Below, piece by piece: positions 1,957 through 4,036 of a stretch of 64,000 nt of DNA. The DNA lies in assembly GCA_024672275.1 (NCBI GenBank), contig GCA_024672275.1_4536.1. One strand, written 5' to 3'. Position numbers and translations under genes: made by a program. The notes under the pieces were generated by a model. It was not told the DNA's origin. It searched no databases and saw only the letters and a program-made list of their open reading frames with translations. The stretch comes from a phage. How positions within the stretch are numbered: the stretch's first letter is position 1; the number at the start of each line of letters is the position of its first letter.

Positions 1957-2031
1957 GGCCCTGTAGCTCAATGGGAGAGCTGTCGGCTCATAACCGATAG
2001 GTAGCTGGATCGAAACCAGCCAGGGCCACCA
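1957..2031 (+). tRNA. tRNA-Met (anticodon CAT), elongator-type
   Basis: acceptor ggccctg/cagggcc, D-arm gctc..gagc, anticodon loop ctCATaa, T-arm gctgg/ccagc, encoded CCA. Confidence 0.75.
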
Positions 2032-2033
2032 AC

Positions 2034-2108
2034 GTCTTTATGGTGTAATGGATAGCACAGGAGTCTTCTAAACTCTTAGTCAAGGTTCGATTCCTTGTAA
2101 AGACACCA
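2034..2108 (+). tRNA. tRNA-Arg (anticodon TCT)
   Basis: acceptor gtcttta/taaagac, anticodon loop ctTCTaa, T-arm caagg-ttcgatt-ccttg, encoded CCA. Confidence 0.7.
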
Positions 2109-2304
2109 GAACATTTTAACATGAATTAGCTCAAGTGATTTGAACCCACTACTGATCATGGTGGCAGAGAATGAGGCAAGTATGTCAGACATTATAAACA
2201 AAGGCCACGGTTATATTAGAAGACATAAATGCTCGAAGAGCACCGTTCGTTGAGAACGGTGGTTGGTGGAGTCACCATTCATGGTAAAATGTTTTAAAAA
2301 ACTA

Positions 2305-2334
2305 TTGACAACTAACATTATTTTATGTTAGATT
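2305..2334 (+). promoter_or_regulatory. sigma70-like promoter
   Basis: 'actattgaca' -35 at 2305-2310, weak -10 (ttagat/tagatt) 17-18 nt downstream; immediately precedes tRNA-Ser. Confidence 0.4.
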
Positions 2335-2342
2335 ATAAGTAT

Positions 2343-2433
2343 GGAAGGGCAAATCGACGTGGCGACGAAAACGGTCTTGAAAACCGCCGAGCTTGAAAGA
2401 GCCTTGGGAGTTCGACTCTCCCTCCTTCCGCCA
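2343..2433 (+). tRNA. tRNA-Ser (anticodon TGA), type II
   Basis: acceptor ggaaggg/tccttcc, anticodon arm cggtCTTGAAAaccg as in E. coli tRNA-Ser, long variable arm, T-arm gggag-ttcgact-ctccc, CCA. Confidence 0.7.
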
Positions 2434-2437
2434 GATT

Positions 2438-2523
2438 GGTAGATTGGTGAAATGGTAGCCACGACAGTTTGCTAAACTGTAGTCGGAAACGGCGTGTAGG
2501 TTCGAGTCCTACATCTACCGCCA
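2438..2523 (+). tRNA. tRNA-Ser (anticodon GCT), type II
   Basis: acceptor ggtagat/atctacc, anticodon stem acagt/actgt with loop ttGCTaa, long variable arm, T-arm gtagg-ttcgagt-cctac, CCA. Confidence 0.75.
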
Positions 2524-2653
2524 AGTTCTTTTTAATATAGCTTACTTTAATAGAGTAAACTTTCGGCAGATGGCCCCCACCATCTTACCGATACCTCATA
2601 GTTAGTGGTGCGAACACTGGCTATTTTAAAAAGAATTTAAATATTAGTATTTA

Positions 2654-2741
2654 GGTGAGTTAATTCCGTAGGGGTAGCGGGGCAGACTGTAAATCTGTTA
2701 TCATTGCGATTCGGGTGGTTCGACTCCATCACTCACCACCA
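2654..2741 (+). tRNA. tRNA-Tyr (anticodon GTA), type II
   Basis: acceptor ggtgagt/actcacc; anticodon arm gcagaCTGTAAAtctg nearly identical to E. coli tRNA-Tyr; long variable arm; CCA. Confidence 0.8.
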
Positions 2742-2747
2742 AATTAA

Positions 2748-2833
2748 GATGAGTTGGCTGAACGGTTTAAGCGGCGGACTGTTAATCCGTGTTCGAAAGA
2801 ACGATATAGGTTCAAATCCTATACTCATCGCCA
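2748..2833 (+). tRNA. unusual tRNA: Asn anticodon arm (GTT) on a type-II scaffold with long variable-arm hairpin
   Basis: acceptor gatgagt/actcatc (7 bp), 3-bp D-stem, anticodon arm gcggaCTGTTAAtccgt (as in E. coli tRNA-Asn), 15-nt variable arm with gttc-gaaa-gaac hairpin, T-arm atagg-ttcaaat-cctat, CCA. Confidence 0.55.
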
Positions 2834-2840
2834 GAATTAT

Positions 2841-2917
2841 GGACTTGTAGAGTTAAGGTAAACCCCCAGTCGCCAAGAGGCTTCTGGAATTGCAGGTATC
2901 GAATCCTGCCGAGTCCC
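2841..2917 (+). tRNA. tRNA-like element, non-canonical (8-nt T-loop, no clean anticodon arm); possible pseudo-tRNA
   Basis: acceptor-like ggacttg/cgagtcc and T-arm gcagg-tatcgaat-cctgc, but D and anticodon arms do not fold canonically; no encoded CCA. Confidence 0.3.
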
Positions 2918-2923
2918 AGCTTT

Positions 2924-2998
2924 GCTCCTATAGTATAATGGCTATTACAACGGTTTTGTAATCCGTGGATCTCTGTTCGATTCAGAGTGGGAGCACCA
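2924..2998 (+). tRNA. tRNA-Thr (anticodon TGT)
   Basis: acceptor gctccta/tgggagc, anticodon loop ttTGTaa (stem with one U-U mismatch), T-arm ctctg-ttcgatt-cagag, CCA. Confidence 0.6.
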
Positions 2999-3271
2999 AT
3001 ACAACATTAAGGGCACTGTGATTGATCGTCGTATCCTGTGCACAAGGTCTGCTCGAAAGACAGTGTTCTTAGTATTGTGTTGATCACACAAAGAGTTACC
3101 TGAAACTTGACCGGAGTAGGGTTGGATGGGGCAAAAGAAGAAGCGGCTCTCCCATCGACAGCAACGAAGAATAATATTTGACTTTGGTTTTGTATTATTT
3201 TAAGTTAGCTTACCGAACGTAGGGCTAGTCACCCAATGGGATACTCGTCACTGTCCCACTCAATAAAACTA

Positions 3272-3301
3272 TTGACAACCAATAGTAAAATGTAGTATAG
3301 T
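3272..3301 (+). promoter_or_regulatory. sigma70-like promoter
   Basis: 'actattgaca' -35 at 3272-3277, 18-nt spacer, tatagt -10 at 3296-3301; tRNA-Gly starts 12 nt downstream. Confidence 0.55.
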
Positions 3302-3312
3302 AAAGATGTAGG

Positions 3313-3386
3313 GCGTTCTTGGTGTAGCGGTAGCATTCCGTCCTTCCAAGTCGGCGGCACGAGTTCGATCCTCGTAGAACGCTCCA
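3313..3386 (+). tRNA. tRNA-Gly (anticodon TCC)
   Basis: acceptor gcgttct/agaacgc, anticodon loop ctTCCaa, T-arm acgag-ttcgatc-ctcgt, CCA. Confidence 0.8.
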
Positions 3387-3484
3387 AATTATTTAATAAA
3401 GGGTTGCCAGAAAACTTTCTCTTTTACTCATGGTTTTCTCCTTCTCTCACACCTCTTCTGGTTGCCCTTCATTAAATGATTTAT

Positions 3485-3560
3485 TGGTTTGTAGTGTAGT
3501 CCGGTAGCACACGACACTTTGACTGTCGTAGGTTTGGTTCAAATCCAGACAGACCAGCCA
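3485..3560 (+). tRNA. tRNA-Gln (anticodon TTG)
   Basis: acceptor tggtttg/cagacca (U1-A72), D-arm gtgt/acac, anticodon stem cgaca/tgtcg with loop ctTTGac, T-arm tttgg-ttcaaat-ccaga, CCA. Confidence 0.7.
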
Positions 3561-3565
3561 TATAA

Positions 3566-3642
3566 CGGAATTTAGCTCAGTTTGGTAGAGCATACGCTTT
3601 GGGAGCGTAGGGTCGCAGGTTCGAATCCTGCAATTCCGACCA
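3566..3642 (+). tRNA. tRNA-Pro (anticodon TGG)
   Basis: acceptor cggaatt/aattccg, D-arm gctc..gagc, anticodon loop ttTGGga, T-arm gcagg-ttcgaat-cctgc, CCA; close to E. coli tRNA-Pro. Confidence 0.85.
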
Positions 3643-3648
3643 ATCAAA

Positions 3649-3722
3649 TGTTTCGTAGTTCAATGGTAGAACCCACGACTGATAATCGTGAGACACAAGT
3701 TCGATTCTTGTCGAAACAACCA
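3649..3722 (+). tRNA. tRNA-Ile (anticodon GAT)
   Basis: acceptor tgtttcg/cgaaaca, D-arm gttc/gaac, anticodon stem cacga/tcgtg with loop ctGATaa, T-arm acaag-ttcgatt-cttgt, CCA. Confidence 0.8.
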
Positions 3723-3724
3723 GT

Positions 3725-3794
3725 TTCCCGTTAGACTTACAGGATAAGAGTTCCACAACTTATTGTGATGCTGGTTCGAATCCAGCACGGGATA
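3725..3794 (+). tRNA. tRNA-like element with oversized (10-nt) anticodon-region loop; possible pseudo-tRNA or non-canonical tRNA
   Basis: canonical T-arm gctgg-ttcgaat-ccagc and cccg/cggg acceptor pairing; internal stem ataag/cttat encloses agttccacaa; no CCA. Confidence 0.3.
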
Positions 3795-3800
3795 CATAAT

Positions 3801-3879
3801 AGCGGGATAGAGGAGTCTGGTCGTCCTCGCCAGTTTCATATGCTGGAGATCATCGGTTCAAATCCGATTCCCGCCTCCA
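3801..3879 (+). tRNA. tRNA-Met (anticodon CAT), initiator-like
   Basis: anticodon loop ttCATat; T-arm atcgg-ttcaaat-ccgat as in E. coli tRNA-fMet; unpaired A1-C72; CCA encoded. Confidence 0.65.
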
Positions 3880-3994
3880 AATATCGCTTGCCAGCGGTAT
3901 CTTTGAAGACCTTGCCTGGTTCCTTCTAAGATGGAGGGGTGCGACTCCTTAACGCACAATTATAATAAAGCATTTCAAATTAACAGTATTTATT

Positions 3995-4018
3995 AGCCTC
4001 CTTATTGGAGGCTTTTTG
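3995..4018 (+). terminator. rho-independent terminator closing the tRNA cluster
   Basis: agcctcc-ttatt-ggaggct hairpin followed by TTTTT. Confidence 0.7.
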
Positions 4019-4036
4019 CTATCTATTGAATAAAAC

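Follow-up and report, generated by a model that had tools for sequence, protein, structure and literature searches.

A class II tRNA-Asn(GUU) in a Phapecoctavirus genome and its conserved, virus-enriched family

A 64,000-nt stretch of phage DNA (contig GCA_024672275.1_4536.1 of assembly GCA_024672275.1; hereafter, the window) carries at positions 2748–2833 on the plus strand a tRNA gene in which an asparagine anticodon arm is joined to a class II body, the type with a long variable arm. Is this gene a working tRNA, which amino acid would it deliver, and what might the extra arm be for? By the textbook rule, a long variable arm is confined in bacteria to the tRNAs for Leu, Ser, Tyr, and Sec, and a long arm together with the discriminator G73 signals serine; a long-arm G73 tRNA with an Asn anticodon, present in hundreds of phages, departs from this rule. 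On comparative grounds, the gene probably encodes a functional elongator tRNA for the codons AAC and AAU, most likely charged with asparagine by the host asparaginyl-tRNA synthetase (AsnRS), and belongs to a conserved class II family of phage tRNAs. The window comes from a Phapecoctavirus, a phAPEC8-like E. coli myovirus of ~150 kb, and its positions 2400–3100 are 99.0% identical to phage Mt1B1_P17.

ARAGORN identified a tRNA-Asn (gtt) at 2748–2833 (+) with the anticodon at position 34, and the Rfam model RF00005 matched positions 2748–2830 end to end (60.4 bits, gathering score 29, E-value 7e-12), so a tRNA finder and a covariance model, both named as checks in the original prediction, agree on the anticodon GUU and on a tRNA fold. 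The gene is 86 nt long including the encoded CCA, and in GenBank relatives the same gene was called 'tRNA-Asn-GTT' (86 nt) by tRNAscan-SE. The Rfam alignment puts a 12-nt insertion into the variable region. All elements of the fold lie on the plus strand. The 5' strand of the acceptor stem (GAUGAGU, 2748–2754) forms seven Watson-Crick pairs with 2823–2829 (ACUCAUC), pair 1:72 being G-C and pair 2:71 A-U, and is followed by U8 and G9. The D-arm (2757–2772, loop AACGGUUU) contains the Watson-Crick pairs G10-C25, C11-G24, and U12-A23, after which G13·A22 leaves a D-stem of 3 bp, as had been predicted. The anticodon stem-loop GCGGA-CUGUUAA-UCCGU (2774–2790) is the same as that of E. coli tRNA-Asn (asnT, NC_000913), and the predicted match extends over the 19 nt CGGCGGACUGUUAAUCCGU (positions 25–43) without a difference. 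The anticodon GUU (2781–2783), given by the sequence, ARAGORN, and Rfam alike, reads AAC and AAU. The variable region (2791–2805) does measure 15 nt; however, the hairpin proper, described at first as 15 nt long, has only 12 nt, with the stem 2791–2794/2799–2802 (GUUC/GAAC), the GNRA tetraloop GAAA (2795–2798), and the unpaired GAU (2803–2805) beyond it. The T-arm AUAGG-UUCAAAU-CCUAU (2806–2822), placed by Rfam and the homologue alignment, the discriminator G73 (2830), and the 3' CCA (2831–2833) complete the molecule. Direct reading bears out the perfect acceptor stem, the canonical T-arm, and the encoded CCA of the original prediction. The cloverleaf thus has a 7-bp acceptor stem, a 5-bp T-stem, a conserved T-loop, and a 7-nt anticodon loop with U33, and the acceptor/T branch is of the standard 7/5 type. 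A single-sequence ViennaRNA fold was tried as a test and rejected: the minimum free energy (MFE) structure was not a cloverleaf, and its z-score (−1.6) was not significant. Non-significant single-sequence MFE folds are usual for tRNAs, and covariance models and comparative data were relied on because such a fold is uninformative for these molecules.

The class I body of tRNA-Asn (variable loop of 4–5 nt, 4-bp D-stem, paired 13:22) was not found in the window tRNA, which has the features of class II instead, namely a variable region of more than 10 nt with a stem-loop and a 3-bp D-stem with a non-Watson-Crick 13:22. For comparison, 1564 unique phage tRNAs were cut into structural segments by rules. 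In the long-arm Asn tRNAs of this set, 13:22 is unpaired in 48 of 71 (G·A in 35) and paired in 23, G9 occurs in 30, and the extra-arm loop is GAAA in 29; in the short phage Asn tRNAs, 13:22 is paired in 68 of 80 (C13-G22 in 54) and A9 occurs in 66. Since both 13:22 and position 9 differ between the long and short forms, the change in the variable arm has been accompanied by one in the D-arm core, a combination also seen in cellular class II tRNAs.

The gene is not isolated. It was found at 95–99% identity in 65 related phage records, and BLAST searches with the 86-nt window gene and with its copy from Serratia phage X20 returned 683 phage records (146 near full length) and 647 records (616 near full length), respectively. 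The homologues are carried by Phapecoctavirus, by Demerecviridae (Epseptimavirus, the Tequintavirus phages SPC35 and SP15, and the Novosibvirus Stubb), by Straboviridae, and by others; the T4-like Straboviridae carriers include X20, CC31, and many Klebsiella and Enterobacter phages. All annotated homologues are labelled plain "tRNA-Asn". The copies of X20, Stubb, S113, and SPC35 share the anticodon GUU, G73, CCA, and a GNRA-capped hairpin of 3–4 bp followed by three free bases, while their hairpin stems vary (GUC/GAC, GUUC/GAAC, or AUCC/GGAU). A scan of IMG/VR for the anticodon arm followed by GGTTC 15–26 nt later yielded matches of which ARAGORN called tRNA-Asn(gtt), 79–91 nt long, in 95 of the 121 listed. 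At least 73 unique long-arm tRNA(GUU) sequences occur in IMG/VR, and their acceptor stems and D-arms are very diverse.

Covariation was examined in a MAFFT alignment of 16 homologues with the arm register of the window gene. Paired cells made up 95.4%, against 68.8% in shuffled alignments and at most 44% with slid partners, and the covariation score was 0.73 against 0.19 and at most 0.13, respectively. Two-sided changes were seen in 19 of 26 pairs, and every helix covaries. In the acceptor stem, all cells are paired and all seven pairs show two-sided changes. The extra arm is under selection as a helix, because its cells are paired throughout (100%) and each of its 4 pairs shows compensatory changes. 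The Levitt pair 15:48 (A15-U48 in the window, G15-C48 in X20 and SPC35) was considered as a further covarying pair and rejected, as only 31% of its cells pair. Long-arm tRNA(GUU) is therefore a large, conserved, virus-enriched family and not a one-off chimera. Of the earlier suggestion that the tRNA is chimeric or identity-switched, the Asn anticodon arm on a class II body stands; a sporadic chimera does not, given the family, and the determinants point to Asn rather than to Ser, Leu, or Tyr.

The enrichment in viruses was estimated by scans tied to a single anticodon-arm sequence and to GGTTC in the T-arm, so the frequencies are rough. With a gap of 8–30 nt, the 120 IMG/VR matches listed included 15 long-arm and 105 ordinary tRNAs (~12% long-arm), a conservative figure because proviruses in IMG/VR may include host tRNA-Asn genes. 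The long-gap pattern was found at only 68 places in 185,579 prokaryotic species (one genome each). Most of these places were rejected as tRNAs, being chance matches in coding DNA or degenerate repeats; ARAGORN confirmed a long-arm tRNA-Asn at 17 of them (about 17–20 cases overall). Eleven of the 17 lie in dense arrays of 7–36 tRNAs per 8 kb, an arrangement that we infer to be typical of mobile or phage-derived elements. With the wide occurrence of this anticodon arm in bacteria taken as the cellular denominator, the long-arm tRNA-Asn is frequent among viruses and almost missing from ordinary cellular sets. In three near-complete arrays of the Micromonospora group (32–36 tRNAs), the long-arm Asn is the only Asn tRNA, and separate Ser tRNAs are present. 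A side observation concerns two Saprospiraceae metagenome-assembled genomes (L133, 4397–4855; L152, 5498–5794), which contain tandem degenerate tRNA-Asn-like units with broken T-stems and a palindromic insertion CCGAUAGCUAUCGG in the variable region.

As to the amino acid, E. coli asparagine identity consists of the three anticodon bases and G73, a set that is also effective when moved into tRNA-Lys (review PMC9976931). This set (G34-U35-U36, G73) is complete in the window tRNA, and through it the host AsnRS would charge the tRNA with Asn. The phage tRNA would then supplement the host pool for a phage rich in Asn codons, which reach 60.2 per 1000 in 30 long open reading frames of the window; E. 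coli uses ~39 per 1000. Both the charging with Asn and the use of the tRNA in translation are inferred from sequence. Across the segmented phage tRNAs, G73 occurs in 69 of the 71 long-arm Asn and 77 of the 80 short Asn tRNAs. Pair 1:72 is U-A in 43 and G-C in 27 of the long-arm Asn, and U-A in 65 of the short Asn; G2-C71 occurs in 31 and 38, respectively. U1-A72, found in E. coli asnT and most short phage Asn tRNAs, is thus kept in 43 of the 71 long-arm forms, and the window tRNA has G1-C72. Phage Ser tRNAs (n = 96) have G73 in 60 and U73 in 26, G1-C72 in 86, and G2-C71 in 92; Tyr tRNAs (n = 57) have A73 in 56, G1-C72 in 50, and G2-C71 in 38; and long-arm Leu tRNAs (n = 80) have A73 in all 80, 1:72 as G-C in 44 and G·U in 28, and G2-C71 in 13. 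In the window tRNA, the A73 of tyrosine and leucine tRNAs and the GUA anticodon of tRNA-Tyr are absent, and of the two serine acceptor pairs G1-C72 is present and G2-C71 is not. Asn charging by the host AsnRS is judged the most likely outcome because the Asn set is conserved across the family and the serine acceptor features are not.

The register of the arm was compared in the same set. In long-arm Asn tRNAs, the stem has a mode of 3–4 bp, with 0–1 unpaired nt on the 5' side and a mode of 3 on the 3' side, and in Tyr tRNAs a mode of 3 bp with 0–1 and a mode of 3 unpaired nt. Ser tRNAs mostly have a stem of 5–7 bp (19 have one of 4 bp), flanked on either side by a mode of 1 unpaired nt, and in long-arm Leu tRNAs the stem is 2–5 bp with modes of 0 and 1. 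The same measures in the four E. coli tRNA-Ser genes examined are 1 nt, 5–6 bp, and 1 nt. With 0 nt, 4 bp, and 3 nt, the register of the window arm is Tyr-like and not of the serine type.

G73 cannot separate Asn from Ser in this tRNA, because the discriminator is common to both, and a dual or switched identity has to be weighed, in which seryl-tRNA synthetase (SerRS) would read the class II body and G73 and Ser would be inserted at Asn codons, alone or in competition with AsnRS. Several points weigh against asparagine here. Serine identity resides in the variable arm and tertiary shape independently of the anticodon, with G1-C72 and G2-C71 absolutely conserved (PMC9976931), and G73 with a long variable arm, the very combination of the window tRNA, has been used elsewhere as a predictor of serine acceptance (PMC5389517). 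The window tRNA has C11-G24 besides G1-C72, the tRNA-Ser(GCU) of the phage itself also has just a 4-bp GAAA-capped arm, and GCU (Ser) and GUU (Asn) are one base apart. Furthermore, AsnRS could be hampered by an extra arm, since class IIb synthetases approach the tRNA from the side of the variable loop. The homologues of X20, Stubb, S113, and SPC35 do have G2-C71, and some serine charging of T4-like and T5-like homologues may occur because these carry G1-C72, G2-C71, and C11-G24. For the window tRNA, such an identity is nevertheless unlikely. Its pair 2:71 is A-U, and G1-C72/G2-C71 are not conserved in the family; the arm register (0–1 nt on the 5' side, 3–4 nt on the 3' side) fits phage and E. 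coli tRNA-Tyr and not tRNA-Ser; and the complete AsnRS identity set is conserved. Himeno et al. reportedly found in 1990 that SerRS accepted E. coli tRNA-Tyr only after its variable stem had been lengthened, which also speaks against serine. Moreover, wholesale insertion of Ser would harm every protein, because Asn codons make up 6% of all codons.

If the tRNA is an asparagine tRNA, what would the arm be for? Long-arm versions of other isotypes occur in the same phage clusters, namely Thr(UGU) in 10 of 87, Cys(GCA) in 8 of 51, and Trp(CCA) in 4 of 48, each with the usual discriminator of its own isotype; among the sampled phage tRNAs, no long-arm form was found in 82 Lys and 122 Arg. GNRA-capped extra arms are seen in the IMG/VR class II-style Thr (L023), Cys (L060–L063), and Trp (L025 and L067), and the long-arm Thr set has G9 and an unpaired 13:22. 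Two further departures were observed in the sampled phage tRNAs: the long arm is missing in 56 of 136 tRNA-Leu genes, and 10 of 19 tRNA-Ile(UAU) have variable regions of 21–26 nt (e.g., IMG/VR L027, L030, L034, L066, L211, and L222), most of whose hairpin loops contain a recurring CAGAUUA or CAGAUAA.

Speculatively, and as our leading guess, the purpose of the arm is evasion of tRNA-targeting defences. The extra arm would reshape the tRNA body, and host enzymes made for ordinary tRNA-Asn, such as defence nucleases, would handle it poorly, while the anticodon-driven AsnRS would still accept it. We tentatively extend this to a wider proposal, possible rather than probable, that class II remodelling of normally class I tRNAs (Asn above all; also Thr, Cys, and Trp) is a phage-specific structural counter-defence or a mark for phage factors. 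A short GNRA-capped arm with a 3-bp D-stem would keep charging and disguise the body from immune nucleases; T5 tRNAs with mutated anticodon stems and phage tRNA-Tyr with its altered variable loop would be parallel cases. The idea is reasonable because the anticodon stem-loop is identical to that of the host and the body is radically different. Phage tRNAs act as counter-measures to tRNA-cleaving defence systems (PMC12409363, PMC12673091, PMC13096335); AriB of PARIS apparently touches not just the anticodon stem but also the D-loop and further parts of the body (PMC12409363), and the tRNA-Tyr of SP15 needs its longer variable loop to neutralise Retron-Eco7 (PMC12673091, PMC13096335). Two reports weigh against a disguise: the T5-like Bas34 is still sensitive to PARIS with its own tRNA-Asn, long-arm or class I (PMC12409363), and SP15 tRNA-Asn gave no rescue from PrrC170 (PMC11555353). 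The PARIS rescue and amber-suppressor notes on T5 tRNA-Asn were rejected as functional evidence; the T5 gene is an ordinary 78-nt class I tRNA, and these notes do not apply to the long-arm class, a further point against the idea.

Other purposes can be assigned to the arm: it may add structural stability to a rapidly made, under-modified tRNA, or it may be a neutral relic of a class II ancestor. The tRNA may also act mainly outside translation, in an anti-defence role. AriB takes E. coli tRNA-Asn(GUU) as a secondary target, overexpressed viral tRNAs have been suggested as competitive inhibitors (PMC12409363), a host-identical anticodon stem-loop would suit a decoy, and the arm geometry is tRNA-Tyr-like. 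This role is improbable, however, as the features needed for translation (7/5 branch, T-loop, G73, CCA, anticodon loop) are intact and selected, the long-arm Asn is the sole Asn tRNA in near-complete sets, and the Bas34 and SP15 results described above apply here as well. Finally, that the gene is a sporadic recombinant, a pseudogene, or an annotation artefact without function, as the non-significant ViennaRNA fold and a pseudogene flag on the neighbouring tRNA-Tyr might suggest, is effectively refuted by conservation (95–99% identity in the 65 related records and homologues in more than 600) and by compensatory changes that preserve every helix.

The reading as a functional, Asn-charged elongator leaves the question of where such a molecule came from. 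The window tRNA shares 61–70 identical positions of 83–84 with the long-arm Asn tRNAs of other phage families, 57–58 with its Tyr and Ser neighbours, and 53 with E. coli tRNA-Asn. Between its acceptor stem and that of the adjacent Tyr(GUA), pair 2:71 is the sole difference; yet duplication of a neighbouring gene was rejected, as the gene is overall closer to the long-arm Asn tRNAs of other phages. When the anticodon and variable arms were left out, the nearest neighbours were class I Asn in 27% and Ser in 19%, at a mean distance of ~10/43, tRNA phylogeny being weak at such a sequence length. Recruitment of a class II body to Asn decoding is plausible but unproven; it is plausible because a single substitution turns GCU (Ser, G73) or GUA (Tyr) into GUU. 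In T5, the syntenic site immediately upstream of the tRNA-like 'rna3' holds a class I Asn, and in its relative SPC35 a long-arm Asn, so the class I and long-arm forms replace each other at this locus. The class I tRNA-Asn of T5 (L304, NC_005859; 7953–8030, −) pairs at only 3 of 5 anticodon-stem positions, with mismatches at 27:43 and 30:40, consistent with reports that it escapes being cut by PARIS at position 40/41.

In the window, ARAGORN found ten plus-strand tRNAs within 1957–3879, and the tRNAscan-SE annotation of the relative ASO2A gives twelve in the same cluster. Four consecutive genes in the cluster have long arms, namely Ser(UGA) (~2343–2432, +), Ser(GCU) (2438–2523, +), Tyr(GUA) (2654–2741, +), and Asn(GUU). 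All three neighbours are annotated in relatives; Ser(GCU) was called by ARAGORN and Rfam, and Ser(UGA) and Tyr(GUA) were overlooked by ARAGORN in the window and both detected by Rfam. No class I tRNA-Asn was found in the 12-tRNA cluster by ARAGORN or in the tRNAscan-SE annotation of relatives, where the long-arm gene is the sole Asn tRNA. Rfam matched Ser(UGA) best to its model of selenocysteine tRNA, at 37.4 bits and so under the gathering score (47), and relatives annotate a 91-nt Ser-TGA; it may be an unusual Sec-like or (8/4) phage serine tRNA. Tyr(GUA) scored 39 bits in Rfam and bears its pseudogene flag in one GenBank record. The copies of tRNA-Asn in the window and in ASO2A differ over 86 nt solely at 2763, which is C16 of the D-loop in the window and U16 in ASO2A; in tRNA-Lys, a U16-to-C change weakens cleavage by PARIS AriB (PMC12409363).

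Directly 3' of tRNA-Asn lies a tRNA-like element (2841–2917, +) that has no CCA and shows an acceptor-like stem of 7 bp together with a T-arm and an extended central arm (MFE −27.6 kcal/mol, z-score −2.8). It is homologous to the T5 'rna3 putative tRNA-like RNA', which also follows tRNA-Asn, and to the SPC35 counterpart; since the window, T5, and SPC35 all show the element after tRNA-Asn, the order Asn-then-RNA3 is kept across phage families. A consensus scan found a promoter-like site at 2305–2334 (+), with 10 of 12 matches and an extended −10 TG, upstream of the Ser(UGA)-Ser(GCU)-Tyr(GUA)-Asn(GUU) run, and a second site at 3272–3301. The count of such sites is no greater than in shuffled sequences, and 2305–2334 is only suggestive as the promoter of the run. 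A terminator-like hairpin (3995–4013) was found by scanning, and a weak RyhB-like Rfam match (3966–4020, +; 29 bits, E-value 0.013) that coincides with this hairpin closing the tRNA cluster is probably just the terminator.

The genes as such are already known, deposited in GenBank as "tRNA-Asn"; SP15 tRNA-Asn has been cloned (PMC11555353), and the PARIS paper treats phage tRNA-Asn at length without the word "variable" (PMC12409363). The class II architecture and its distribution are apparently new: a full-text literature search, with subscription journals mostly outside its scope and an older account of the T5-sequencing era possible, found no paper describing them. The carriers include laboratory models, such as the T5-like SP15, Epseptimavirus, and several phages with BASEL-style names. 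Charging with Asn would mean that AsnRS can cope with a class II body, and the family would then offer a natural test of how SerRS turns such a molecule away, which would help studies of tRNA identity and the design of orthogonal tRNAs. If the arm protects from tRNA-cleaving defences, it would be a new structural escape route in the phage–host arms race, and if the tRNA is serylated instead, it would be a case of natural, virus-encoded mistranslation. Whichever reading holds, plain "tRNA-Asn" labels in genome annotation conceal a distinct class.

Compared with known tRNAs, the window tRNA shares with E. coli asnT/U/V/W the anticodon stem-loop with position 26 (19 nt) and G73, and many members of its family also share U1-A72; recognition by AsnRS via the anticodon and G73 is presumably common to both. 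The E. coli tRNA-Asn is of class I (variable loop of 5 nt, D-stem of 4 bp with C13-G22, U8-A9); in the window tRNA, the variable region measures 15 nt and contains a hairpin, and G13·A22, U8-G9, and G1-C72 are present. It resembles bacterial class II tRNAs in its long stem-loop arm, often GNRA-capped there, the 3-bp D-stem, the purine-purine 13:22, and G9; tRNA-Tyr is nearest in arm length and register, and G73 and C11-G24 are like those of tRNA-Ser. It differs from the Tyr, Leu, and Ser tRNAs in its GUU anticodon, in lacking A73 (Tyr, Leu) and G2-C71, and in lacking an arm of at least 5 bp with 1-nt flanks (Ser). The nematode nev-tRNAs and eukaryotic noncanonical V-arm tRNAs (Hamashima et al.; PMC3333845, PMC4300185) likewise combine a class II body with the anticodon of a normally class I amino acid. 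The nev-tRNAs are reported to accept leucine in vitro, against their anticodon; in the window tRNA, the discriminator and acceptor features follow the amino acid of the anticodon, the lineage is phage, and a short GNRA hairpin forms the arm. Allo-tRNAs and (8/4) tRNA-Ser (Mukai et al. 2017, PMC5389517) are likewise atypical tRNAs with a long arm; they have G73 or U73 and anticodons other than those of serine, and some are encoded by phages. Unlike the 7/5 window tRNA, allo-tRNAs have 8/4 or 9/3 branches and Sec-like D-arms and insert Ser or Ala (PMC5389517). Finally, the tRNA-Lys/Thr/Asn of T5 (PARIS) and the tRNA-Tyr of SP15/T5 (Retron-Eco7, Septu) are, like the window tRNA, phage copies with bodies unlike those of the host, and for tRNA-Tyr it is the variable loop in which the difference counts; the T5 escape variants are mutated in the anticodon stem-loop, whereas the anticodon stem-loop of the window tRNA is that of the host.

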